From: Patescibacteria group bacterium
Lineage (GTDB): Bacteria > Patescibacteriota > Patescibacteriia > UBA10025 > JAHIVO01
Assembly (NCBI GenBank): GCA_018816445.1
Contig: JAHIVO010000028.1
Location: 1 to 11,432, forward strand
Direction of reading: 5' to 3'
Length of the DNA: 11,432 bases
In this document: one piece after another, positions 237 through 11,432 of the stretch
How the letters are laid out: the number at the start of each line of letters is the position of its first letter
How positions within the stretch are numbered: position 1 is the first letter of the stretch
Position numbers and translations under genes: made by a program
The notes under the pieces: generated by a model
What the model saw: only the letters and a program-made list of their open reading frames with translations
Told to the model about the DNA's origin: nothing
Database searches by the model: none

Positions 237-2576
237 TTACTTAATTTCTGGTAGAAATTTTATAGGCCATTGTTTTGGGTCATGGATGTACTTCAGGTCA
301 TGGATGCCGATTTTTCCTATATATAATTTTTTTAATTCATCTATCCCCTTGTCTTTAAGTAGTCTTTGGATCATCTGGTAGCCGATAAAATAAACAATAT
401 CCTTAGCAAAAGCGCCGGGTTCATTAGTATTTTCCAGACCCCTTTTAGTGCGTACACAAATACGCCAAGCTTTAGCTTTGTCTATTTTAAAGTTACTTTG
501 CAGGAAGTGGAATAGTTCTGTGAAAGACAAGTTATTGCCATGGTAAATAGCCGCGATGTTCAGGGCAGGTGAAAAATATTTTTCTCCTAAAGGTATACCC
601 AGACTGTTTTGGTTGTAAATTGCTAAACCCTCTTCAGTCGTCAGATAATTAGCTGTTCCCTGCTCAAATAAGCTGTATTTTTGCAAGCGGCCATTTTCCA
701 GGCGGAAAATATGTGTTTCAATTTCATGAGCAATCAGCGCTTTTAGACGGTTTTCAGAAAAGTTGGCTTTCTTATTAACGAAGATTGTATTTTTTTTATT
801 AATTTGCATGCCTGAAGTAGCAGTTTCCAGAATTTTTATTTTCCATCTGGTTAATTTTTTTTGGGAAAGGTACGCAGATAGGCGTTTGATTACCTCCTCA
901 GTGTTTAATTTCTTGCTAGTATCTTTTTCTAGCTTCTCATTTTTCATGAATGACAGAGCCTGCTCATATAATTCATTAGATACACTGCCAAAAAGTTTAA
1001 TTGAGTACTCCGCCATTTCCGGACGCCCAATATTGTCAATTAGTGATAGTTTATCGTCAATTTCTTTAATTTTTTCTAAGTACAACGGCATCAGCGGGTG
1101 GTCAATATTCTTTGGAATTTTTTTAATCTCGTTGCGCAGGTGGTTTATATTAAGATCATGTTTCTTGTAAATGAATTGCGGTGAGTGGACTGGTTTTTTT
1201 ATGAATTTTTTAAATTCATCATTCAGGTTTTGGGGCTTAATTCTAGCGATCAGGTGTATGCACTCATTTATTGCCAGAATTTTCTTATCAATATTTAGTA
1301 AAATTTTTTCTTCTTTTGATTCAATGGGCGCAGAACTAGTTGGTTCTGGCTTAATCTTAGAGGTATCAATTAAAAAGTCAGTCAGGTATTTGCCAGAGAG
1401 AATGGCTTTATATGGCTTGTCTTTAAAATTATCCGTAGTAAAGGGAATTTTAAGTTTTTTTTCTTTTAACACGATGGATAGCAAGCGTCCGGCTGGGGAT
1501 AATTTAATCCCCTGGTCAATGATATTGTTTTCGCTGTGGGGATCAATTTTTACGTGGATATTGGCACCATTGATTGCATTAATTATATTAATTGATTCAA
1601 AAAGGCCAATAATTGGCTTGGCAGTTTTTACATTTAATACTTTTTCTTCTTTTACTACTCGCGTAAATAAAGTTTTTCCGATTTTTACGCCTTCTTTTGT
1701 TGACATTACTTTAAGATCGGCAATCTTTTCCAATCTTTTACGCAGTAAGGTTTGGTTAGATATCTGAATGGCCAAACCTGCTCGGGCGTTGAGTTCTAGT
1801 ATTTTAATGCCATTTTTTGCTAAAGTTATGTCTACTGCCAGGTAGCCGATTTGTGATAAGTATTGGGTGCGGCTGGCCGTGGCTAAGATTTCATCCCACT
1901 GCGGGATGGCAATACTCCCGACTGGGTCACCAGTAGGCAGTCTTTTTACCAGCTTATTATGCCTTACGCCGAATGTTGTTTTGCCGGTACCAATGTCTAT
2001 GCCCAGACCAATGGCTCCTAGATGAAGATTGGCTTTACCATGAGATTCGGCAGTGGGCAGGCGTAGCATAGCAATGACCGGCACGTACTTAAAGACAATA
2101 ATCCTGATGTCAGGCAGTCCGCCTGCTTCCATAAATTTTTTGAAATAATCATGGGGTTCCAGCATCTCTTCAAAAATAACCGTGTCGCTAAGGCCGGATA
2201 TGGCGTATTTTCCATCCAGGATGCCGATACAATGCTCATATAAATCAGACCATGAAATATTTTTATTATTAACATCTGTGTATGTATCGCCGTGCCATCT
2301 TTTAATAGCCCATATTCCCTCCCCACCATAACCTTTATTCGGTTTAATCACAAAACTTGGAGGTAGGTTGCTTCTATTGAAATTCCTTAATTCAGGCAGT
2401 GAATTAATTGAAGCATAGAGCCTGGCTACCCCAACATCGCGCGCTTGCAAAAAATGTTTGGTGTGGATTTTACTGTCGGCCAATTCTTTCTTGCCTCGTG
2501 TATTATATTTTGTTATATACAGTAAATTTCTTGCGTTGATGCCGAGAATATCTGATGCTTTGCCAAAAAATGACAT
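237..2576 (-). CDS. Fusion protein: N-terminal alpha-L-glutamate-ligase-like ATP-grasp (RimK-related, sugar-transfer-associated ATP-grasp type) plus C-terminal DUF1704/MATCAP-like metallopeptidase domain (HExxxH ... EEGLA)
   Basis: 779-aa ORF. N-terminal motifs LGINARNLLYI, FVIKPNKGYGGEGIW and DIRIIVFKYVPVIAMLRLPTAESHGKANLHLGAIGLGIDIGTGKT match the rimK-related alpha-L-glutamate ligase-like family as I recall it. C-terminus has HEIETH (HExxxH) followed ~27 aa later by TEEGLAIY, matching the QEGLA motif of DUF1704. The middle is a K/I/N/E-rich linker. Stop is TAA. Confidence 0.7.
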   Translation of the reverse strand: MSFFGKASDILGINARNLLYITKYNTRGKKELADSKIHTKHFLQARDVGVARLYASINSLPELRNFNRSNLPPSFVIKPNKGYGGEGIWAIKRWHGDTYTDVNNKNISWSDLYEHCIGILDGKYAISGLSDTVIFEEMLEPHDYFKKFMEAGGLPDIRIIVFKYVPVIAMLRLPTAESHGKANLHLGAIGLGIDIGTGKTTFGVRHNKLVKRLPTGDPVGSIAIPQWDEILATASRTQYLSQIGYLAVDITLAKNGIKILELNARAGLAIQISNQTLLRKRLEKIADLKVMSTKEGVKIGKTLFTRVVKEEKVLNVKTAKPIIGLFESINIINAINGANIHVKIDPHSENNIIDQGIKLSPAGRLLSIVLKEKKLKIPFTTDNFKDKPYKAILSGKYLTDFLIDTSKIKPEPTSSAPIESKEEKILLNIDKKILAINECIHLIARIKPQNLNDEFKKFIKKPVHSPQFIYKKHDLNINHLRNEIKKIPKNIDHPLMPLYLEKIKEIDDKLSLIDNIGRPEMAEYSIKLFGSVSNELYEQALSFMKNEKLEKDTSKKLNTEEVIKRLSAYLSQKKLTRWKIKILETATSGMQINKKNTIFVNKKANFSENRLKALIAHEIETHIFRLENGRLQKYSLFEQGTANYLTTEEGLAIYNQNSLGIPLGEKYFSPALNIAAIYHGNNLSFTELFHFLQSNFKIDKAKAWRICVRTKRGLENTNEPGAFAKDIVYFIGYQMIQRLLKDKGIDELKKLYIGKIGIHDLKYIHDPKQWPIKFLPEIK

Positions 2577-2681
2577 AATAAGTAATTCAAAAGTAAAAAA
2601 TCAAAATGCAAAAATGCATGTTAAGTATTTCAAATTTTATTTGTCATTTTTATTTTTTATCTTTAAAATTTTCATTTTGTT

Positions 2682-4235
2682 CTATTCTTCAATATTTTTT
2701 TCTTTGAATAATGTTCTGAAACGGACATATTCCATAAATCTAAGCCCTGTGAATTTACCTAGGATTATTAATCCAAGTAATGGTGCCAGAACGAGTTCAG
2801 GCCATGACATTATCAGGTTTGTAAAAGCAGTCCAAACCACTAGATAATAAGCAGCTAGGGCCACTAGGATAGTTTTAAATACGCCGAACAGAGCTTCCCT
2901 TAAGCCTTCTTCAGACTGAGCTGACAGGAATTTTTCAGAAATTGTTGACATAACTAGCATAGGAAAAATTGCCAGGGAAATGGCTAGAGAAACCTGATAG
3001 TATGACAAGAACCAGATAAGTCCTAAAAATGACAAACCAATGCTAGCCAATATCAGGCCGGATTTAGGCATGTACAACAGCCTAAACCTGTTGAGAATGG
3101 ATCTTAAAATATAACTGACAGCTACAACTATTATTATTGTACCTAGGCCAAATAAAATTCCCAGGATGAGCAAGGAAAGAGCAATAACCGAAGGAGTATA
3201 AATTCCAAAAGCTGAAATACCGACTATCTGCCGGAAAAAGGCGATTACAAAAACAATAAATGGGTAAGCTAATATCAAATAAATAGTGTTAGTTGGTATG
3301 CCCTTGGTAATAAAATTTGTTATGGCATGGGAAAGAATAAAGAGCGGCGATTTTTCACTGCGTGAATCAATTACACGATATTCAATAGCTCTATTTGAGA
3401 GGTTGGTGGTTAGCAGATTATAATCATCTATTTCAAATATTGGATTAAGTGCTTCTTTACGGGTGAGCAGGATAAAAGCAGGCTGCATCACTTCAAACGA
3501 TTGAAAGGTCAGCTTTTCCGTAATACCGATATTTTGGTCAGTGATTTTTACTAATAGTTTTTTCTTTAAGTTAATTTTATTATCATCTTCCAGGTTTTGC
3601 CAGTAACGCGTGAATGACTGCAAGCCAAGGGAGGTTTGGGTGTAAAAGATTAAGCCGTCTGATTCCTTAATAAATTCTATTTCTTCACCAATGATTGAAA
3701 CCATTTTTTCTTCAGTTAAAAACCCAGTCTCTTCTCCAACGGCGGATATGATTTTTAAAAAGACGCCATTATGCGCTGCCTGGTCTACAATCAGCTCTAA
3801 TCCATCCGTTGTGTCCTTATCAGTAATTATTAATATTTTTTTGTTATAAACAAATATTGTTTTTTCAATATTGGCCTTGAATTCACCCTGCTGGATGGTT
3901 AAGGTGATTTCATGTATGCCGGTTGATTTATACTCATGCACCACTTCTTTCCCAAACTGAACAATATTATCATCTGTGAAATCCCAGCGGTATGATGGGT
4001 TAAAATCTGTTGGTAAAAGTTCTGATTCGGAAGCGTCAAATAAAGCTTTTTTATTAACCATAATAAAGTCTTCTGAAGTTATAACAGGAGATAGCTGATT
4101 TACCTCAATCCCTTCGTCGCTATCTGTTTCCAATATTGGGGCATCCTGAGCTAAGGCCATAGGACTGAAAAAAAATAGTGATATCAGCCCTATGAAGATT
4201 GTGGTCAGTAATTTTTTCATATAATTATTATACAC
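2682..4235 (-). CDS. Signal-peptide protein with extracytoplasmic PKD-like domain and C-terminal 7-TM bundle (resembles the 7TM partner proteins of RimK-like ATP-grasp systems; 7TM-transglutaminase-associated type)
   Basis: 517 aa. N-terminal signal peptide MKKLLTTIFIGLISLFFFSPMALAQ. PKD-like motif YRWDFTDDNIVQFGKEVVHEYKSTGIHEITLTI. About 7 hydrophobic helices in the last ~220 aa. Start is 2 nt after the upstream ATP-grasp stop (4238), suggesting translational coupling. Confidence 0.65.
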   Translation of the reverse strand: MYNNYMKKLLTTIFIGLISLFFFSPMALAQDAPILETDSDEGIEVNQLSPVITSEDFIMVNKKALFDASESELLPTDFNPSYRWDFTDDNIVQFGKEVVHEYKSTGIHEITLTIQQGEFKANIEKTIFVYNKKILIITDKDTTDGLELIVDQAAHNGVFLKIISAVGEETGFLTEEKMVSIIGEEIEFIKESDGLIFYTQTSLGLQSFTRYWQNLEDDNKINLKKKLLVKITDQNIGITEKLTFQSFEVMQPAFILLTRKEALNPIFEIDDYNLLTTNLSNRAIEYRVIDSRSEKSPLFILSHAITNFITKGIPTNTIYLILAYPFIVFVIAFFRQIVGISAFGIYTPSVIALSLLILGILFGLGTIIIVVAVSYILRSILNRFRLLYMPKSGLILASIGLSFLGLIWFLSYYQVSLAISLAIFPMLVMSTISEKFLSAQSEEGLREALFGVFKTILVALAAYYLVVWTAFTNLIMSWPELVLAPLLGLIILGKFTGLRFMEYVRFRTLFKEKNIEE

Positions 4236-4237
4236 GT

Positions 4238-5191
4238 TTATTTAATACATTGCATGAGCGTTTTAAGCAGTTCTTTATGCCAGATATGATAGTACATTTT
4301 CCATTGTGGATATGGAAAGCCTGCCCGTGGGTTTAATTCGAAGACATAAGGTCGGCCATTTTCAAAGCCAAAGTCCATGGCATACATGCGATTGCCCATT
4401 CTTTTGATTTTTTTATCTATTAGAAAAGCAATTTTTATTGCTTTTTTTGGCACAGCACTTTTTTTAATTTCTAGCATTTTTCCTCCCTGAGCAACATTGG
4501 CTAATAGTGAGCCTTGCTTGGGAATACGTATGTATGTTTGAACGATTCTGCCGTTCATAAGTAATATTCTCATGTCATGGCGGGTTTTACATATGCCCGG
4601 CACTCCGCTAGAGGTGTCTAAAAAATCCTGTAATATTCCATTAAATGATTTTAATTTATTTTTTATCTTTTTTTTATCAGCAATGATAATACCCTTGCCT
4701 TCGGAGCCGCGTAAGGGCTTAAAAACAACTTGTTTGGTTTTAATTTTTTTTATTTGCCGGTTAAAATCAGATTTATTCTTAATTCTATAAGTAGGCTTCA
4801 TGTATTTTTTCAGGAGTTTATAGGTGTGATATTTATTGTCCATTATGAACAGGAGATTCCATTTGTTTAATACGCTCCAGTCTTTTCCGCCATTACAATG
4901 TAAGGGAGCCTTATTAAATACGACTTTGGCATAAATTTTTTCTTTCAAGCGGAGAAATTTTCCTTTTTTAAATTCAAAACCATCCGAAAAAATGCCATTG
5001 CCCAAATGCTTTTTGGTACCGCGAACATAAAATACGTTAAATTTTGACTCAGCAAGTCTCAGGAACTCCATGATTGATTGGCGATAATTGGGGTTATCAA
5101 GCGGATAATCAGACAAGGTGCCAGACTTAGTGAGATAAACCAAATTTGGTTTGTTATTTTGATAACGCTGTTTATTCGTTACTGCTGCCAT
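4238..5191 (-). CDS. RimK-like ATP-grasp family ligase
   Basis: 317 aa. Motifs VVFKPLRGSEGKGIIIA, RHDMRILLMNGRIVQTYIRIPKQGSLLANVAQGGK and YAMDFGFENGRPYVFELNPRAGF are typical of the RimK/ATP-grasp core. First gene of a tightly packed minus-strand three-gene cluster. Confidence 0.7.
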   Translation of the reverse strand: MAAVTNKQRYQNNKPNLVYLTKSGTLSDYPLDNPNYRQSIMEFLRLAESKFNVFYVRGTKKHLGNGIFSDGFEFKKGKFLRLKEKIYAKVVFNKAPLHCNGGKDWSVLNKWNLLFIMDNKYHTYKLLKKYMKPTYRIKNKSDFNRQIKKIKTKQVVFKPLRGSEGKGIIIADKKKIKNKLKSFNGILQDFLDTSSGVPGICKTRHDMRILLMNGRIVQTYIRIPKQGSLLANVAQGGKMLEIKKSAVPKKAIKIAFLIDKKIKRMGNRMYAMDFGFENGRPYVFELNPRAGFPYPQWKMYYHIWHKELLKTLMQCIK

Positions 5192-5297
5192 AAGAAATAA
5201 TTAAATACCATAATCCAGACTCAATTTAAATTATTGTGTCCTTTTTATCTTTGTTTTTATTAGACTGGGCAAATTGGCGTTTTATTTTTTTTAAAAG

Positions 5298-5381
5298 TGC
5301 CGCGGGAGAGAATCGAACTCTCAAGGTGTTGCCACCACTGGATTTTAAGTCCAGCGCGTATACCAGTTCCGCCACCGCGGC
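5298..5381 (-). tRNA. tRNA-Leu(TAA), class II (long variable arm), CCA not encoded
   Basis: Minus-strand fold: acceptor GCCGCGG/CCGCGGC, 3-bp D-stem with long D-loop, anticodon stem CTGGA/TCCAG with loop CTTAAAA (anticodon UAA), variable-arm stem GGTG/CACC, T-arm GAGAG-TTCGATT-CTCTC, discriminator A. Confidence 0.85.
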
Positions 5382-5636
5382 TCATTTGTCAATAAGAGTA
5401 TTTTTTAACATTGCCTTTATGGATGCTTTACCTTTTGAGATTTTAAAGTATCGTTCTCTTTTTTCAGCATCATCTTTATTGTTAAATACTTCATAAAAAA
5501 TTAATTTTATAGGGAGTCTATTTTTCGTAAATGGACTTCTTCCTTTTTTATGTTCGTTTAATCTCCGAGTGAGATTATAAGTTAATCCACAGTATAATTG
5601 TTTGTTTGAAAGTAAAAGTAAATAAATGTAGTACAT
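5382..5636 (-). CDS. Small GIY-YIG nuclease family protein (COG2827/YhbQ-like, ~84 aa); ORF is open upstream to 5663
   Basis: MYYIYLLLSNKQLYCGLTYNLTRRLNEHKKG carries GIY (YIY), YIG (YCG), Arg and Glu (NEH) motifs. The TGA stop abuts tRNA-Leu position +1. About 28% GC. Confidence 0.75.
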   Translation of the reverse strand: MYYIYLLLLSNKQLYCGLTYNLTRRLNEHKKGRSPFTKNRLPIKLIFYEVFNNKDDAEKRERYFKISKGKASIKAMLKNTLIDK

Positions 5637-5654
5637 ATTTGTATGTATACCACC

Positions 5655-5705
5655 CTGCACCACTAAAGGGTGCAGGATAGCTGTGAACCCTTTAGTGGTT
5701 CACAG
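5655..5705 (-). repeat. Paired hairpins with mutually complementary loops (ctgcacc-actaaag-ggtgcag and ctgtgaacc-ctttagt-ggttcacag) in the GIY-YIG 5' leader
   Basis: Stems of 7 bp and 9 bp. The loops actaaag and ctttagt are reverse complements, so an alternative 11-bp long-range pairing (ccactaaaggg/ccctttagtgg) is possible. Confidence 0.6.
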
Positions 5706-6404: not shown

Positions 6405-6480
6405 TGGAGCGGCAGACCGGACTCGAACCGGCGACCTTTTCCTTGGCAAGGAAACGTTCTACCAACTGAACTACTGCCGC
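6405..6480 (-). tRNA. tRNA-Gly(GCC), CCA encoded
   Basis: Acceptor GCGGCAG/CTGCCGC, D-arm GTTC-AGTTGGTA-GAAC, anticodon stem TTTCC/GGAAA with loop TTGCCAA, T-arm GCCGG-TTCGAGT-CCGGT, discriminator T plus CCA. Confidence 0.9.
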
Positions 6481-6763: not shown

Positions 6764-6837
<74 letters not shown>

Positions 6838-7087: not shown

Positions 7088-7591
7088 TTAAAGAATTTCA
7101 ATTGTTGTATATCTAACTCCCCATTGCTTGGCTGCGTCGCGAGTCTCCATCCATATATCAGCCCGCTGCCAATAGCGCTGGTGCATGCGATCTTCAACAA
7201 TAAATATTTTATTACCATATTTTTCTGGGAATCTTACTTTTGTGCCAATAGGCAGAAAGTTGGCGGCGATAATTCCATCACGTACACGGCTGCCAGAAGC
7301 GGTGATAAGGGGGTCGCCTGATGTTTGATCAGGGGTAGACGAATAAGCAGTGACTGAAATTTTCAAAGACCGTTTAGCTTCTGGCTGTGGCCTGTCCGGT
7401 ATTTCCGGTAGGTGCAGTACGGGTGGTTCTTTGGCAATTGAAAAATTTATTTGTGTAGATTCAAAAATGCTTGGCTCTATTTTTATTTCACTGGCTGTAG
7501 CCTGGTATGGGAACGAGAATTCCCCGATTAGGATTATCAGTAGCACGATAATCAGGCGTTTTGCTTCAATTGAGTTAATACTTGTAAACAT
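7088..7591 (-). CDS. 3D-domain (MltA-like double-psi beta-barrel) protein with N-terminal signal/anchor; YuiC/YocH-like cell-wall hydrolase-type protein
   Basis: 167 aa. Hydrophobic N-terminus LIIVLLIILIG. The C-terminus ISVTAYSSTPDQTSGDPLITASGSRVRDGIIAANFLPIGTKVRFPEKYGNKIFIVEDRMHQRYWQRADIWMETRDAAKQWGVRYTTIEIL fits the 3D-domain consensus (TAY..G..T..G......G.IA.....P.GT...I....G...V.D.G..I.G..ID.......A..WG.R.V.V.IL). Confidence 0.85.
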   Translation of the reverse strand: MFTSINSIEAKRLIIVLLIILIGEFSFPYQATASEIKIEPSIFESTQINFSIAKEPPVLHLPEIPDRPQPEAKRSLKISVTAYSSTPDQTSGDPLITASGSRVRDGIIAANFLPIGTKVRFPEKYGNKIFIVEDRMHQRYWQRADIWMETRDAAKQWGVRYTTIEIL

Positions 7592-7936: not shown

Positions 7937-8605
7937 ATGCGCTTACCAGCTAAAAAAAAATATTTGCAGATTGCCTTTAACCGGACTTGGAGTGAAGTAC
8001 GGGAGATGGTTAATTATTTGCCAGCTTCAGACAGAATACTGGTGGAAGCAGGCACTCCTTTTATAAAAAAATACGGCCAAGAGGGAATTAGCGCACTTGA
8101 TCAATGGTGGTCGGTTAGATTGGGACGGCCTGGTTACGTTGTGGCTGATTTAAAATGCATGGACCGGGGATCTACTGAAGTGGAAGAAGCCGCAGCTGCC
8201 GGAGCTTCAGCTGTTACCTGTTTGGGTTTGGCACCTATTGATACAATCAATGAGTTTATCAAAAAGTGCCAGAATTCACAGGTTGATTCTATGATAAATA
8301 TGCTGAATGTTGATTTTCCATTTGAGGTACTGCAAAAATTAAAAAGTATGCCGGATATTGTCGTGCTGCACCGCGGAGCTGACGAGGGAGTGATTAATAG
8401 AGAGAAGATGCTTAGGCTTGACCAGATTCGTCGGATTAAAGGGGCCTATAATATTTTTATTTCCGTAGCCGGTGGTGAAACATCCAGAGAAGTTATCAGT
8501 TCGGCTTTTAATGATGCTGACATTGTTGTTGTCTGGAGGACTTTTTATGAACAGCCAAAACAGACAACCCAGCTGGCAGAAGATTTTTTAAGGAATGTAA
8601 AATAA
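7937..8605 (+). CDS. OMP-decarboxylase-suprafamily enzyme of the 3-hexulose-6-phosphate synthase / 3-keto-L-gulonate-6-P decarboxylase (HPS/KGPDC) family, paralog 1
   Basis: 222 aa. KYLQIAFN (first beta-strand), VEAGTP, ADLKCMD (DxKxxD), VVLHRGADEG (conserved His), ISVAGGE and ADIVVVW follow the HPS/KGPDC motif pattern. Asn replaces the usual Asp of the LQVALD motif. Confidence 0.8.
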   Translation: MRLPAKKKYLQIAFNRTWSEVREMVNYLPASDRILVEAGTPFIKKYGQEGISALDQWWSVRLGRPGYVVADLKCMDRGSTEVEEAAAAGASAVTCLGLAPIDTINEFIKKCQNSQVDSMINMLNVDFPFEVLQKLKSMPDIVVLHRGADEGVINREKMLRLDQIRRIKGAYNIFISVAGGETSREVISSAFNDADIVVVWRTFYEQPKQTTQLAEDFLRNVK

Positions 8606-8607
8606 CC

Positions 8608-9537
8608 ATGAATCCTTCAGCCGATTCCTTTATTGAAGTTATCCGATCCTTAGTTTGGTTTGTGGTAATATTTTTAATAATATACAGTTTAAAAAAGAAT
8701 AAAAATAAAGCGACCTCGAAGGGCAAGCCCTCATCAAGCAGCCAAACTTTAATTGATCTTATTACACGTTTAAGCCAGGAGGTAGCTAAAAAGAAAGCTA
8801 TGGTGCTACCAGGCAGCCGGCCAAGTGTTGGGTCTCCCCGTTCATTGTTTGCCACCCCGGCATTATTAGCTCCACCGCCGCCTAAATTATCCCAAAAAAA
8901 CAAGTATTTGCAGGTAGCCCTTAATAGCACTTTACACGAAGCGCGGAGTATAATTTATCAGCTGCCGCAATCACACAGGATTATACTGGAGGCCGGCACC
9001 CCGCTTATGAAAATTTACGGTAATGAAGCCATTCGGGCGATGAAATCCGCCGCCTGGCCAGGCGCTTATATCGTAGCGGATATTAAAACTACTGATTTGG
9101 CAGTTCGCGAAGTTGCCGAGGTTGCCCAGGCCGGCGCTAATGCTGCAACATGCCTGGGTGTAGCCCCAGTAGAAACAATAAATGAATTTATTGCCGCTTG
9201 CCGAAAATATGGGCTTGATTCAATGGTTGATATGATGAACGTGGATAATGCGCTGATAGTGCTAAAGAAACTAAAAAAAGTTCCGGATGTAGTCATGCTG
9301 CATCGTGGTGTTGATGAAACCGAATTTTCAAAAGAAAGACAAATTCCTTTTTATCAGATTAAGCAGATTAAAGGGGCATATGATATTATGGTCTCTATTG
9401 CTGGCGGAGATCAGATTCGGGAAGTTCAGCGAGCAGTGTTTAATGACGCTGATATTGTGGTTGCGTGGAAAGATTTTTATCGCCTTAGTTCAGACACAGC
9501 TACTCTGGCTAATCAGTTTTTACATGAAGTAAAATAA
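8608..9537 (+). CDS. HPS/KGPDC-family paralog 2 with ~90-aa N-terminal extension (one predicted TM helix plus Ser/Pro-rich linker)
   Basis: 309 aa. The C-terminal 215 aa are ~45% identical to paralog 1 (KYLQVALN, LEAGTP, ADIKTTD, VMLHRGVDET, VSIAGGD, ADIVVAW). ATG lies 2 nt after the paralog-1 stop. N-terminus LVWFVVIFLIIYSL, then SSSSQ...PPPP. Confidence 0.75.
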   Translation: MNPSADSFIEVIRSLVWFVVIFLIIYSLKKNKNKATSKGKPSSSSQTLIDLITRLSQEVAKKKAMVLPGSRPSVGSPRSLFATPALLAPPPPKLSQKNKYLQVALNSTLHEARSIIYQLPQSHRIILEAGTPLMKIYGNEAIRAMKSAAWPGAYIVADIKTTDLAVREVAEVAQAGANAATCLGVAPVETINEFIAACRKYGLDSMVDMMNVDNALIVLKKLKKVPDVVMLHRGVDETEFSKERQIPFYQIKQIKGAYDIMVSIAGGDQIREVQRAVFNDADIVVAWKDFYRLSSDTATLANQFLHEVK

Positions 9538-9548
9538 TAAGGAATAAA

Positions 9549-9586
9549 AAATAACCCCGAAATTTTTTACCGGAGTTATTTTATTA
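9549..9586. terminator. Bidirectional rho-independent terminator between convergent HPS-like paralog 2 and the SPFH gene
   Basis: aataaccccg-aaattttttac-cggagttatt is a 10-bp stem with one G-U pair, flanked by T-runs on both strands. Confidence 0.6.
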
Positions 9587-9591
9587 TATAT

Positions 9592-10353
9592 TTATTTTTG
9601 AGAATCTTTACCTAAGGCCTTAATCCCTTCCATGACTTCCACCGGCAGGGCAAAGATGACAGTTTTGGACGGGTCTGGATTAATTGCTTCAATAGTCTTC
9701 AGGGTGCGCAGGGACAAACCGCCTTTGGCCATGGAAAGATTCTGGGCAGCCGCTCTGAGGTTTTCCGAAGCGGATAGTTCGCCCTGGGCGCGGATGATAA
9801 CAGCCCGCCGTTCTCTTTCTGACTCAGCCTGTTTAGCCATAGCGCGCTTCATATCCGCTGGCAGTTCAATATCCTGGATTTTAATAGCTGTTACGTTAAT
9901 ACCCCAGGGGTTAGTGGCTTCATCAACGATTTTTTGTATTTCATCAGCAATTTTATCGCGTTCTGCCAGTGAAGTATCCAGCTCAACACTACCAATAACA
10001 TCGCGCAGGGCAGCCTGGGCATATTGGGCTACGGCGGTGGAATAATTTTGGATTTTGAGGATAGCACTCTCGGCTTTCTCAACCTGGAAATATACAACTG
10101 CGTTGATACCGACTGGCACGTTATCCTTGGTAATAACTTCCTGCTGGGGGATATCCACAGTGGTGATACGCAGGTCAACTTTGATCATGCGCTGGATAAT
10201 GGGGAAAATCCAGGTTAAACCCGGAGTCCGGGTGCCGGTGTACTTGCCCAGAGTTAAGATAACACCGCGTTCGTACTGGTTAATAATGCGCAAGCCAGTT
10301 AGCATGAAGAATCCGAAAAAGATGATGATGAAGAAAAAAACTCCTAAAACCAT
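9592..10353 (-). CDS. SPFH/band-7 (stomatin/prohibitin-like) membrane protein
   Basis: 253 aa. N-terminal TM FFFIIIFFGFFMLTGL, then QYERGVILTLGKYTGTRTPGLTWIFP...KDNVPVGINAVVYFQV and a C-terminal coiled-coil Ala/Glu/Arg-rich segment, as typical of SPFH. Confidence 0.9.
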   Translation of the reverse strand: MVLGVFFFIIIFFGFFMLTGLRIINQYERGVILTLGKYTGTRTPGLTWIFPIIQRMIKVDLRITTVDIPQQEVITKDNVPVGINAVVYFQVEKAESAILKIQNYSTAVAQYAQAALRDVIGSVELDTSLAERDKIADEIQKIVDEATNPWGINVTAIKIQDIELPADMKRAMAKQAESERERRAVIIRAQGELSASENLRAAAQNLSMAKGGLSLRTLKTIEAINPDPSKTVIFALPVEVMEGIKALGKDSQK

Positions 10354-10663: not shown

Positions 10664-11077
10664 CTAATAGCTCGTGTAATACCTGCCCCAGGACCACCAG
10701 TCCAGGTCAGGATCAATCAGGTCTTTCAGTGCCAGCGTGCGGTTGAAGAAAGTCCAGCGGCCTATTTGCCAGGTTAAAAATAAATCCGTACCCCAGTCTT
10801 TTACTGGCCACTCGGTGTCCCTGATTTCCAGCCGGTTGAACAAAAAGCCATTGATTTGCAGCTTGGCGGTAACATAGCGCGGACCCAGGCCAGCCATTAA
10901 CCAGGGTTTGTCCCCGGTCTGGTACAATAAATACCAGTTCCAGTTTTCAGCCGTATTTATGTAGTAGAGGGTGGCTTGTTTACCGATGTTCTGTTTGACT
11001 TTCAGGGTGTGGGTGGCGGCTGTGGCGTTGGTAATGAGTAGTACCAGGCAGATAAGCAGACATAAAACTGTTTTCAT
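10664..11077 (-). CDS. Signal-peptide, Trp/Tyr-rich beta-type secreted or outer-membrane-like protein of unknown function; 137 aa up to the in-frame TAG
   Basis: MKTVLCLLICLVLLITNATAA signal peptide, preceded by AAGGAG at 11085-11090 (7-nt spacing). The ORF is open upstream to 11146, but the SD supports ATG 11077. About 48% GC. Confidence 0.55.
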   Translation of the reverse strand: MKTVLCLLICLVLLITNATAATHTLKVKQNIGKQATLYYINTAENWNWYLLYQTGDKPWLMAGLGPRYVTAKLQINGFLFNRLEIRDTEWPVKDWGTDLFLTWQIGRWTFFNRTLALKDLIDPDLDWWSWGRYYTSY

Positions 11078-11094
11078 TAAAATTCTCCTTGGGT

Positions 11095-11432
11095 TTATTT
11101 GAAGAACTGAATGCTTTGGATCGGCATGAAATCGGTAAAAGCCCAAGCTTTCCAGCTACCGTCACCTGAGACATCGGTACTGTGAATAAATTCAAGCATA
11201 ATACCTTCCCGCATACCCGGTGAGTAAAGTCGTAGCATCCACCCCCTGTTTATTCCTCCATCCTTTGAGCAGCTGTGCATGTCATAGGCGGCGATCACGA
11301 AGCCGTAGATGTTTCTGTGAAGATTTTCGGGCTTTATTGCGCCGTCATCAACACCACTAATGGCAACGAACGTCACCTTCATGCCCAAAAGTTTCTGCGG
11401 TTTTGATGGCAAGCCAATACCTGGATTGGCGG
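11095..11432 (-). CDS. Hypothetical protein, 5'-truncated by the window end (frame open to 11432); no family recognised
   Basis: ...LPSKPQKLLGMKVTFVAISGVDDGAIKPENLHRNIYGFVIAAYDMHSCSKDGGINRGWMLRLYSPGMREGIMLEFIHSTDVSGDGSWKAWAFTDFMPIQSIQFFK. TAA at 11095-11097 is followed 4 nt later by the SD of the next gene. The M of the ORF track is a TTG codon and the frame stays open to the window edge. Confidence 0.45.
   Translation of the reverse strand, partial: ANPGIGLPSKPQKLLGMKVTFVAISGVDDGAIKPENLHRNIYGFVIAAYDMHSCSKDGGINRGWMLRLYSPGMREGIMLEFIHSTDVSGDGSWKAWAFTDFMPIQSIQFFK

Follow-up and report, generated by a model that had tools for sequence, protein, structure and literature searches.

Two adjacent genes in the genome of a Patescibacteria group bacterium, ORF1 and ORF2, were found to encode paralogous (beta/alpha)8 barrels resembling hexulose-6-P synthase (HPS), both belonging to a clade in which the first-strand catalytic Asp of the OMPDC suprafamily is invariably replaced by Asn. 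The second protein carries an N-terminal membrane anchor, and a stomatin gene adjoins the pair both here and at most loci of the clade. The explanation that we favour, and of which we are about half convinced, is that these genes specify a catalytically competent, HPS-like Mg2+/enediolate enzyme, probably of non-canonical specificity, which would work at the membrane together with the stomatin and, in the present genome, as a heterodimer.

Organisation of the tandem genes

Within the stretch of DNA analysed (the window, 11,432 nt), ORF1 (positions 7937..8605) encodes a soluble Asn-variant HPS-like barrel of 222 aa, designated F1 type, and ORF2 (8608..9537) a membrane-anchored Asn-variant paralogue of 309 aa, designated F2 type; both genes and all features within them lie on the forward strand. 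A preliminary description of this DNA had placed the two reading frames at these coordinates, 2 nt apart, and the sequence and ORF list gave the same arrangement, with the gap reading TAAccATG and the reading frames differing. The paralogy claimed there was upheld by BLASTP far beyond chance (E=7e-78), although the identity, originally put at 45%, was measured as 50% over 223 aa. The ORF1-like part of ORF2 comprises residues 93-309 only, and its catalytic barrel was assigned to residues 100-309 (8905..9534) from alignment to ORF1 and to HPS structures and from the AF2 model. pLDDT values of 87.9 for ORF1 and 84.1 for ORF2 were obtained when each was modelled as a single chain in AF2. The F1 type is recognised by the motifs AFNRS, MDRG, AGGE and WR, and the F2 type by ALNST, TDLA, AGGD and WK; the relatives of ORF1 numbered 120 and were 62-68% identical to it. 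The spacer 5' of ORF1 varies in length among loci, and an Rfam scan (E<=0.1) returned three tRNAs only, with no riboswitch or other RNA 5' of ORF1. An anti-phage defence system was ruled out, PADLOC giving no match for ORF1, ORF2 or the stomatin.

Assignment to the OMPDC suprafamily

Pfam, NCBIfam, PDB alignment and Foldseek all agreed with the earlier placement of both proteins in the HPS/KGPDC branch of the OMPDC suprafamily. Scores against Pfam OMPdecase PF00215 (OMPdecase/HUMPS) were 58.8 bits for ORF1 and 68.4 bits for ORF2, above the gathering cut-off of 27. The best NCBIfam and PDB matches were HPS, yet every HPS equivalog cut-off was missed, with ORF1 and ORF2 scoring 90.2 and 107.5 bits against TIGR03128 (HPS; cut-off 200), 157.9 and 172.8 bits against NF009833 (Fae-Hps; cut-off 274) and 85.4 and 106.6 bits against NF041755 (HxlAB; cut-off 500). 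Scores with the KGPDC models NF009831/NF009832 were only 33-41 bits against cut-offs of 250-294. When the AF2 model of ORF1 was used in Foldseek, ranks 1-3 were taken by the HPS structures 3f4w, 9lj9 and 3ajx (TM 0.75-0.83, 24-25% identity), while the KGPDC structures 1kv8 and 1q6q gave a TM of about 0.76.

The HPS signature, in 3ajx numbering, consists of D8, E30, G32, T33, P34, D59, K61, D64, D109, H134, A164, G165 and G186 (PMC5980557). ORF2 retains 11/13 of these positions and ORF1 10/13, so that neither carries the full signature; D8 is replaced by Asn and G186 by Trp in both proteins, and D109 by Asn in ORF1 only. At three positions by which HPS can be told from KGPDC the family resembles HPS, with Asp in place of Glu, Val/Ala in place of Arg, and Ala in place of Thr. 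Correspondingly, the residues specific to KGPDC, Glu112, Arg139 and Thr169 (PMC5980557), read Asp/Asn, Ala/Val and Ala in ORF1/ORF2, and the KGPDC signature is absent. Members of the clade are currently labelled 'orotidine 5'-phosphate decarboxylase', 'Fae/Hps' or 'KGPDC' in databases.

Active-site residues

Residues were counted across 120 F1 (ORF1-type), 120 F2 (ORF2-type) and 29 single-copy sequences, 269 in total, and are given in ORF1 numbering. The preliminary description had claimed that Asn replaces the first-strand Asp in both proteins, and structure-sequence, HMM and MAFFT alignments bore this out. Asn15 of ORF1 (codon AAC, 7979..7981) occupies the column of HPS D8 and KGPDC D11 and is Asn in 120/120 F1 sequences, and Asn106 of ORF2 (codon AAT, 8923..8925), which falls in the same column in the HMM and MAFFT alignments, is Asn in 120/120 F2 sequences. 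The LQVALN of ORF2 matches, column for column, the LQVALD, LQLALD and LQVAID of the HPS structures 9lj9, 3f4w and 3ajx. A misalignment with Asp one residue away was ruled out, as AFNRTW and ALNSTL contain no Asp/Glu within 3 residues. All 269 relatives carry the Asn, Asp never being found in the clade. What is said here of the first-strand Asp in HPS and KGPDC follows general knowledge of the papers of Gerlt and Rayment and the table in PMC5980557; a search of the open-text literature found no source on its exact role. The Asp was present in 29/32 canonical representatives, and Table 1 of PMC5980557 shows it in all of its OMPDC, KGPDC and HPS rows. An apparent Asn in one canonical sequence, the Fae-Hps P0291, was an artefact of the HMM alignment; this protein reads LQIALDNPS and retains the Asp.

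The second-strand Glu (E37/E128), the DxKxxD motif and the His (H145/H232) had been described as retained in both proteins, and the alignment agreed. The DxKxxD motif corresponds to D71-L-K73-C-M-D76 followed by R77 in ORF1 (8147..8164), and to D158-I-K160-T-T-D163 followed by L164 in ORF2 (9079..9096). Positions N15, E37, D71, K73, H145, G147, D149 and W200 were invariant in 269/269 sequences, and D76 (268/269), R146 (268/269) and D121 (267/269) nearly so. One departure, overlooked previously, is Asn121 of ORF1 (codon AAT, 8297..8299) in the fifth-strand Asp column (HPS D109/KGPDC E112); this position is Asp in 118/120 F1, 120/120 F2 and 29/29 single-copy sequences, and the D121N change is private to the present genome.

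Two further differences from canonical HPS were fixed throughout the clade. Near the phosphate site, the AGG[ILV] of canonical HPS has become AGG[D/E]: the strand-7 phosphate loop of ORF1 reads G179-G180-E181 (8471..8479; Glu in 120/120 F1), and that of ORF2 G266-G267-D268 (9403..9411), the ancestral AGGD state, with Asp in 120/120 F2 and 29/29 single-copy sequences. On strand 8, the phosphate-loop Gly (HPS G186, KGPDC G191) is replaced by Trp, as seen in W200-R201 of ORF1 (8534..8539) and W287-K288 of ORF2 (9466..9471); this position was Trp in 269/269 clade members and Gly in 32/32 canonical representatives.

Distribution of the Asn-variant clade

The 269 Asn-variant relatives form one clade that is almost exclusively patescibacterial. 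Sequences with the Asn/Trp combination clustered apart from those with Asp/Gly in a neighbour-joining tree without support values, and a gap in bit scores separates the clade from canonical HPS. The suggestion that Asn-variant pairs constitute a distinct clade was thereby supported, with the residue Asn in 269/269 sequences. Some lineages, however, possess only a single copy, which has no membrane anchor and carries the same Asn (29 sequences), so the tandem state is not a defining feature of the clade. Mean column identity across named CPR lineages was 76%, which indicates strong selection. A full-text literature search combining CPR, Patescibacteria or Parcubacteria with hexulose, RuMP, HPS, SPFH or stomatin returned no description of the enzyme family or of the gene pair.

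The ORF2 membrane anchor

ORF2 possesses about 95 additional N-terminal residues without homology to ORF1, missed in the preliminary description, which consist of a membrane helix and a disordered linker. Residues 5-30 (8620..8697) form a predicted transmembrane helix (an AF2 helix with pLDDT of about 90) followed by KKNKNK, and the catalytic domain is therefore expected to be cytoplasmic. One or two hydrophobic segments were present at the N-terminus in 101 of 102 long F2 relatives. The linker, residues 31-99 (8698..8904), was modelled in blocks of pLDDT 51-62 and contains one short helix (45-64), the remainder being of low confidence and Pro/Ser-rich; its sequence is poorly conserved, and the segment is never absent. 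In the mechanism proposed here, the N-terminal helix and the linker of about 70 residues would hold the enzyme to the membrane on its cytoplasmic side.

Association with a stomatin gene

Downstream of ORF2, on the reverse strand, lies a gene for a stomatin (SPFH/Band 7) protein of 253 aa with an N-terminal hydrophobic anchor (9592..10353; Pfam Band_7, 2e-44). Using phmmer, its product was found to be similar over its full length to human stomatin (9oh9, residues 59-300; E=8e-56), and it also matched PH1511 (1e-51) and QmcA. This gene, likewise overlooked before, adjoins the enzyme in 73 of 80 non-redundant loci, in convergent (66), co-directional downstream (4) or co-directional upstream (3) arrangement. 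It was the only other conserved family in the 80 loci, the next best occurring in 6/80. With the stomatin as query in a reverse test, the enzyme was found at 62 of 67 informative loci. Furthermore, a more distant Asn-bearing sister group has the enzyme in a co-directional operon with stomatin, with gaps of 6-8 nt. Single-copy members lack the anchor and retain the stomatin neighbour, from which it follows that tethering is not needed for the partnership. Convergent genes might stay adjacent for reasons unrelated to function, for instance because they share a terminator; the occurrence of three different arrangements, however, disfavours this. No stomatin was present on the 3.6-kb contig of the Asp-form outgroup P0275.

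The tail-to-tail spacer between ORF2 and the stomatin gene (54 nt; 9538..9591) contains a weak A-run/hairpin/T-run, the hairpin of which (dG -10.8, z -1.77) is not statistically distinguished as a fold. It is possibly a bidirectional terminator; an intrinsic terminator at this site was rejected, as the consensus scan found none and the hairpin is weak. The reported lack of a PHI gene in the window was corroborated, no SIS/PHI being found; Pfam likewise detected neither SIS nor Fae within it and gave no match for the flanking unknown ORFs. A tblastn search with the PHI domain, confined to the loci themselves (91 loci, 700 kb), gave nothing at E<1, although PHI may be encoded at another place in these genomes, and among the 80 loci neither fusion nor adjacency to PHI or Fae was encountered, there being no third conserved family. 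Nor was NfeD, as protease or OB-fold, among the conserved neighbours, no further family occurring in more than 6/80 loci. We propose that the enzyme acts with the stomatin encoded tail to tail with it, presumably by associating with a stomatin membrane scaffold, whether as a client or as a partner.

Divergence of the paralogues

The stop-start gap between the paralogues was -4 to +6 nt in 36 of 46 tandem loci, and the F1 type was never observed without F2 where the contig allowed. Members of the OMPDC suprafamily are obligate dimers, in which the second Asp of DxKxxD is donated to the active site of the partner. At position 77, beside this trans-acting Asp, F1 has kept the single-copy state (Arg in 119/120 F1 and 29/29 single-copy sequences) and F2 is derived (Leu in 119/120), while at positions 14, 16, 181 and 201 it is F2 that shares the single-copy state and F1 that is derived. 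ORF2 would have retained the ancestral barrel residues and ORF1 the ancestral loop reaching into its partner, a distribution that fits a heterodimer, since with the states divided in this way no other pairing of the subunits would restore a fully ancestral site. This reasoning depends on position 77 lying in the trans-contributed loop, where we take it to lie by analogy with KGPDC and OMPDC, in which the neighbouring Asp has that location.

The ORF1:ORF2 heterodimer raised in the preliminary description thus receives indirect support from the conserved stop-start gaps, the failure of F1 to occur alone and the complementary divergence; the full catalytic set, kept family-wide in both paralogue types, is also compatible with two separate homodimers. 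Such a heterodimer, made by coupled translation, would be the most likely form in the present genome, and the complementary divergence predicts that it has one ancestral and one derived site. The first, comprising the ORF2 barrel and the Asp-Arg loop of ORF1, would have the composition of the single-copy ancestor, and the second, comprising the ORF1 barrel and the Asp-Leu loop of ORF2, would be derived and, in this genome, also devoid of the fifth-strand Asp.

Proposed function and alternative explanations

The whole family retains the residues that serve HPS in metal binding and acid-base chemistry (second-strand Glu, DxKxxD, fifth-strand Asp, His-Arg-Gly-Val-Asp and Ala-Gly-Gly), which points to an active Mg2+-dependent enzyme. 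By analogy with HPS, it would make or break a C-C bond beside a ketose carbonyl via an enediolate, and N15, the acid after the strand-7 Gly-Gly and the strand-8 Trp may reflect either relocation of the carboxylate or a phosphorylated substrate that is larger or otherwise different. The specificity for substrate or reaction probably differs from the canonical Ru5P plus formaldehyde. The earlier suggestion of a reaction unlike that of canonical HPS is plausible, and is strengthened by the two further clade-specific changes, the absence of PHI and the stomatin linkage.

Could the proteins simply be ordinary HPS, interconverting Ru5P plus formaldehyde and hexulose-6-P either to detoxify formaldehyde or to make pentoses by a reverse RuMP route, with the Asn neutral and the stomatin adjacency irrelevant to function? 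Asn is isosteric with Asp and can play the same hydrogen-bonding role, so canonical chemistry could still be supported; pentose-phosphate metabolism is reduced in many CPR genomes, HPS gave the best matches in NCBIfam and the PDB, and the proteins have all but two of the signature residues and side with HPS at the three positions that distinguish it from KGPDC. We nevertheless consider this unlikely, as both proteins score far below every HPS equivalog cut-off and the membrane anchor and reciprocal stomatin linkage would be left unexplained. Genes of the hxlA-hxlB type are normally adjacent or fused, and neither PHI nor Fae was fused or adjacent in the 91 loci. Furthermore, the strand-8 Gly is always Trp, an acid follows the Gly-Gly, and the first-strand Asp, never seen in the clade, is present in 29/32 canonical representatives and all rows of PMC5980557.

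Distinctly unlikely, in our judgement, is a pair of independent homodimers, ORF1 soluble and ORF2 membrane-bound, whose activities would be identical or differ slightly and whose tandem arrangement reflects nothing but a recent-looking duplication. Single-copy members must indeed function as homo-oligomers, and all catalytic residues are kept in both paralogue families; however, the duplication is old, F1 being a distinct subclade and the paralogues 50% identical against 62-75% for orthologues, and this explanation leaves aside the conserved stop/start coupling, the absence of F1 on its own and the division of ancestral states that only a heterodimer would reunite. A non-catalytic ligand-binding module, in which turnover was lost via the Asp to Asn change and a sugar-phosphate sensor or structural partner regulates, or is regulated by, the stomatin scaffold, would account for the replacement of this catalytic-column Asp in every member and for the loss of the fifth-strand Asp from the present ORF1, and the usual partners of SPFH proteins are membrane proteins subject to regulation, not metabolic enzymes. 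Pseudoenzymes, however, normally drift at several catalytic positions, whereas E37, D71, K73, H145 and D149 are conserved in 269/269 sequences and D76 and R146 in 268, with very high overall conservation besides, making such a module very improbable.

On the favoured reading, an active enzyme working with the stomatin, ORF1 and ORF2 probably form an enzyme module linked to the membrane and not a formaldehyde-fixing enzyme of the ordinary kind. A bolder version, which we regard as doubtful, is that the Asn/Trp barrel, whether single or as an anchored ORF1:ORF2 heterodimer, is physically a client of the stomatin oligomer, in the place that NfeD occupies in other prokaryotes, and catalyses a new OMPDC-suprafamily reaction. 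Its phosphorylated substrate would perhaps be imported or close to the membrane, and each heterodimer would combine an ancestral with a neofunctionalised site; if true, an SPFH membrane scaffold would for the first time have been seen to house or regulate a metabolic enzyme. How different chemistries evolve on one active-site scaffold is classically illustrated by the OMPDC suprafamily, and a large, strongly conserved clade with a fixed first-strand Asp swap and remodelled phosphate loops offers a natural experiment on that scaffold, probably marking an activity beyond those so far assigned in the suprafamily. Metabolic reconstructions of Patescibacteria that trust the current labels run the risk of assigning pyrimidine, RuMP or ascorbate steps in error. 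Little is well established about what prokaryotic stomatins do, and the reciprocal, rearrangement-resistant pairing with a soluble-enzyme fold supplies a concrete candidate partner, in a group that has very few conserved accessory modules.

Comparison with known systems

The nearest systems by sequence and structure are HPS enzymes (EC 4.1.2.43; HxlA/RmpA, and the HPS domain in the archaeal fusions Fae-Hps and Hps-Phi; 3ajx, 3f4w, 9lj9), which have the same (beta/alpha)8 fold and share with the ORF1/ORF2 family the strand-2 Glu, strand-3 DxKxxD, strand-5 Asp, strand-6 His-x-Gly and strand-7 Ala-Gly-Gly. Unlike HPS, the family has a first-strand Asn, a strand-8 Trp and an acid after the Gly-Gly, no PHI/Fae partner at its loci, one anchored paralogue and an obligate stomatin neighbourhood. 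KGPDC (1kv8, 1q6q) shares the fold, the Mg2+/enediolate scaffold, DxKxxD and the equivalents of Glu33 and His136; ORF1 and ORF2 differ from it in having no ula/sgb context and in the replacement of Glu112, Arg139 and Thr169. Heteromeric enzymes derived from tandem paralogues follow a general pattern of old tandem duplication, coupled translation and interface active sites, all of which are paralleled here; in contrast to that pattern, both ORF1 and ORF2 types keep complete catalytic sets, the asymmetry being read solely from the distribution of ancestral residues. The prokaryotic stomatin-NfeD operons (Pyrococcus PH1511/PH1510; E. coli QmcA/YbbJ) differ in that the partner here is an OMPDC-suprafamily TIM barrel rather than an NfeD protease or OB-fold, and in that the genes are mostly convergent rather than co-transcribed. 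In those operons, too, one specific partner lies next to stomatin across many lineages, and ORF2, in which a membrane anchor at the N-terminus precedes a soluble domain, has the same layout as the short NfeD proteins.

A tandem pair of HPS-like barrels

The window encodes two HPS-like barrel proteins on the forward strand, ORF1 (7937-8605, 222 aa) and ORF2 (8608-9537, 309 aa), the latter carrying an N-terminal extension. By BLASTP the two share 50% of their residues across 223 aligned positions (E=7e-78), the homology to ORF1 being confined to residues 93-309 of ORF2, and the stop codon of ORF1 is separated from the start of ORF2 by 2 nt (TAAccATG). The preliminary description of translationally coupled tandem paralogues, about 45% identical and 2 nt apart, was thus borne out, and the coupling extends to relatives: at 36 of the 46 tandem loci, stop and start codons lie -4 to +6 nt apart. 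The proposed membership of the HPS/KGPDC family was likewise upheld by matches to Pfam OMPdecase/HUMPS (58.8 bits for ORF1 and 68.4 for ORF2, cut-off 27) and to HPS-type NCBIfam models. The top NCBIfam model, scoring 158 and 173 bits against a cut-off of 274, was the HPS half of archaeal Fae-Hps, followed by HxlA (90 and 108 bits, cut-off 200), while the KGPDC models gave 33-41 bits; the proteins are therefore HPS-like, yet lie under every curated equivalog threshold. The nearest folds to the AlphaFold model of ORF1 (pLDDT 87.9) were the HPS structures 3f4w, 9lj9 and 3ajx, then KGPDC, with TM-scores of 0.75-0.83 at 24-25% identity. The window spans its contig of 11,432 bp from end to end, and both proteins appear in public records as 'orotidine 5'-phosphate decarboxylase [Patescibacteria group bacterium]'; the database labels OMP decarboxylase, Fae/Hps and KGPDC were all contradicted by the residue and threshold tests.

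The Asn said to replace the conserved first-strand Asp in both proteins (N15 of ORF1, N106 of ORF2; other barrel positions follow ORF1 numbering) was found in the catalytic Asp column by HMM and MAFFT alignments, in agreement with phmmer, which aligned LQVALN of ORF2 onto LQVALD (9lj9), LQLALD (3f4w) and LQVAID (3ajx) among PDB sequences. An Asp one residue away in a corrected alignment was ruled out by the neighbouring residues (F-N-R-T in ORF1, L-N-S-T in ORF2), none of which is acidic one position away. Structure-aligned active-site residues are available for HPS (3ajx: A6, D8, E30, G32, T33, P34, D59, K61, D64, D109, H134, A164, G165, G186) and KGPDC (1xbv: A9, D11, E33, G35, T36, D62, K64, D67, E112, H136, R139, T169, G170, G191, R192) (PMC5980557 Table 1). 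The only HPS positions lost in both ORFs were D8 (to Asn) and G186 (to Trp), with D109 also lost in ORF1; DxKxxD, the second-strand Glu and the His are intact, as had been noted. At the three positions separating HPS from KGPDC, ORF1 and ORF2 have the residues typical of HPS (Asp, Val/Ala and Ala), except that ORF1 of the window deviates from Asp at the specificity position, where codon 121 (8297-8299, +; HPS D109, KGPDC E112) encodes Asn. Relatives carry Asp here in 118/120 ORF1-type, 120/120 ORF2-type and 29/29 single-copy sequences, or 267 of the 268 sequences besides ORF1 of the window. With N15 and Asn121, the ORF1 barrel of this genome therefore lacks two usual acidic residues, which would fit a relaxed or altered second active site.

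Conservation of the Asn/Trp family

Relatives of ORF1 numbered 1,417 at E<=1e-3, of which the best 120 share 62-68% identity, have a length of about 222 aa and without exception carry KYLQIAFN; those of ORF2 numbered 1,886, the best 120 carrying KYL[QH][IV]ALNST. Source names span many candidate phyla, namely Staskawicz-, Moran-, Komeili-, Falkow-, Magasanik-, Kuenen-, Shapiro-, Roizman-, Gottesman-, Doudna-, Sung-, Uhr-, Nomura-, Vogel-, Nealson- and Peregrinibacteria, Paceibacterota and Minisyncoccia, the taxon labels of many MAG records being generic or unreliable. When 1.84 billion cluster representatives were searched exhaustively, 49 matched at E<=1e-30, with scores then declining gradually to about 115 bits and 39% identity, where canonical HPS-like proteins start. 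Key columns of the clade read QAN, AGG[D/E] and W[K/R]xxY, as against QAD, AGG[I/L/V/M] and G[R/S/G]xxT in canonical relatives.

Conservation of the barrel family is very strong. Among 269 sequences (120 of the ORF1 type, 120 of the ORF2 type and 29 single-copy forms), N15, W200, E37, D71, K73, H145, G147 and D149 were invariant (269/269), and D76 and R146 were each present in 268/269. Mean column identity across candidate phyla was 76%. In this family of HPS-like barrels the Asn and the Trp never vary and an acidic residue has been added, and its suggested status as a distinct clade agrees with a neighbour-joining tree without support values, in which N/W forms grouped apart from Asp/Gly forms. 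An apparent Asn in P0291, a Fae-Hps representative, arose from misalignment; the protein reads LQIALDNPS and keeps its Asp. We regard the family as a separate and so far uncharacterised branch of a well-known suprafamily, unexpectedly associated with the membrane and SPFH proteins, and a full-text literature search found no description of the barrel family or of a stomatin-HPS-like pair.

Membrane anchor, copy number and proposed active-site pairing

AlphaFold placed in ORF2 a confident helix at residues 5-30 (VWFVVIFLIIYSL..., then KKNKNK), a short helix at 45-64, a low-confidence Pro/Ser-rich stretch at 65-99 and the barrel at 100-309. The N-terminal helix is, as modelled, a membrane anchor, and a hydrophobic helix or helical hairpin recurs there in 101/102 long ORF2 relatives, in a region otherwise poorly conserved in sequence. 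Because positive charges follow the helix (positive-inside rule), the catalytic domain of ORF2 would lie on the cytoplasmic side. This duplicated, translationally coupled and partly membrane-anchored form exists beside a single-copy one, the only form in about 29/80 genome loci, which is without anchor, equidistant from ORF1 and ORF2, and reads ...KRYLQ[IV]ALNST. The ORF1 type was never seen without ORF2, save where a contig ends, and forms a distinct subclade, the ORF2 type nesting with single-copy forms (neighbour-joining tree without support values). Two loci about 10 kb apart on one 62-kb contig (L063/L064; CAYLXU010000001.1, 28178-36846 and 38691-47359) have identical barrel and stomatin match statistics, which may reflect either duplication of the module or a repeat introduced in assembly.

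Ancestral and derived residues were judged by match to the single-copy state. At barrel positions 14 (ORF1 type F, ORF2 type L, single copy L), 16 (R, S/N, S/N/G), 181 (E, D, D) and 201 (mostly R, K, mostly K), the ORF2 type retains the single-copy state and the ORF1 type is derived. The reverse holds at position 77, after Asp76, where ORF1-type (119/120) and single-copy (29/29) sequences have Arg and the ORF2 type has Leu (119/120). Asp76 is the counterpart of the second Asp in DxKxxD, which in OMPDC and KGPDC enters the partner subunit's active site. If position 77 acts like Asp76, only an ORF1:ORF2 heterodimer restores a fully ancestral active site, which would consist of the ORF2 barrel and the ORF1 loop, the other site being derived on both sides. 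We infer from these residue patterns that ORF1 and ORF2 of the tandem form would pair as a heterodimer whose two sites are unequal; separate ORF1 and ORF2 homodimers, neither of which would restore that site, are improbable.

The barrel proteins are probably catalytically active, because none of the metal and acid-base residues varies, unlike in pseudoenzymes, and for the same reason a non-catalytic ligand sensor is highly improbable. The chemistry would be of HPS/KGPDC type, through an Mg2+-enediolate. The three fixed changes appear to cluster at the metal/phosphate end of the barrel, suggesting either a shift of the carboxylate from strand 1 to the strand-7 loop or a different substrate. An ordinary HPS is unlikely, given scores below the equivalog thresholds, although the Asn could hydrogen-bond as Asp does and the usual partner PHI could be encoded elsewhere in the genome; a PHI gene had already been reported missing from the window, and no PHI/SIS sequence was detectable in any of 91 loci spanning 700 kb.

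Genomic context and the stomatin partner

The module is flanked in the window by ORFs at 7088-7591 (-, 167 aa) and 10664-11146 (-, 160 aa), which have hydrophobic N-termini and no Pfam or NCBIfam match; a relative of the former occurs in 4/80 loci. Also on the reverse strand lie tRNA-Leu(TAA) (5297-5381), a 93-aa GIY-YIG nuclease ORF ending exactly at its start (5382-5663), and tRNA-Gly(GCC) and tRNA-Cys(GCA) (6405-6480, 6764-6837); a GIY-YIG gene is also near the module in L005/L006. A three-gene cluster (237-5191, -) encodes an ATP-grasp_ST and MATCAP (tyrosine-carboxypeptidase-like) fusion (779 aa), a PKD and 7TM_transglut protein (517 aa) and a RimK-like ATP-grasp protein (317 aa), and looks like a peptide-ligase/7TM 'inactive transglutaminase' system. 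In one case only, a Peregrinibacteria contig (L003:13148-15508, -), the module has an XFP phosphoketolase, an enzyme acting on Xu5P/F6P, some 3.5 kb away. No PADLOC defence family or Rfam element was associated with the module.

A full-length stomatin is encoded at 9592-10353 (-; Pfam Band_7, 2e-44), and phmmer matched it to human stomatin, solved as a 16-mer (E=8e-56), Pyrococcus PH1511 (E=1e-51) and E. coli QmcA (E=8e-39). The order barrel, barrel, convergent Band_7 was also found in other CPR lineages, in three contexts independent of one another. All-against-all clustering of ORFs of at least 80 aa from 80 non-redundant loci (4-8 kb flanks) gave just two conserved real families, the barrel in all 80 loci and stomatin in 73, with no third above 6/80 loci, the next clusters being antisense shadow ORFs; of the seven loci that lack stomatin, five are truncated just downstream. 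The genes are convergent in 66 loci (stop codons <=16 nt apart in 35), with stomatin co-directional downstream in 4 and upstream in 3, so that the pairing survives rearrangement. The partnership is reciprocal: with stomatin as query against metagenome contigs, a barrel gene adjoined it in 62/80 loci, and as the contig extends <700 nt on the side in question in 13 of the 18 others, in 62/67 informative loci.

A distant Asn-bearing group (L087:1-920, L090:2128-3504) reads AFNDD, with its Asn in the column of N15, and AGGV, without the Trp or AGG[D/E], and has stomatin directly upstream of the barrel in a co-directional operon (6-8 nt gaps). Because genes for an alpha-L-rhamnosidase and a type I restriction HSDR_N protein are also present on the L090 contig, the group may lie outside CPR. 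In six loci (L010:1665-1988 (-), L014, L021, L024, L037, L078), the gene for a stand-alone EF-Tu domain-2-like beta-barrel protein of 82-108 aa (Pfam GTP_EFTU_D2, 4.7e-9) immediately follows stomatin and separates it from ORF2. A multi-pass membrane protein of about 290 aa with YD, GGGD and PALP motifs (Pfam SPP, presenilin-type intramembrane aspartyl protease, 9.5e-21) is encoded 15-75 nt upstream of the barrel on the same strand in 6/80 loci (L044, L053, L072, L075 (3091-3957, +), L076, L078), reminiscent of the membrane proteases with which other SPFH proteins are paired. The enzyme would act at the membrane together with the stomatin scaffold. In most prokaryotes the usual gene neighbour of stomatin is NfeD, whose genomic position would here be held by the barrel enzyme.
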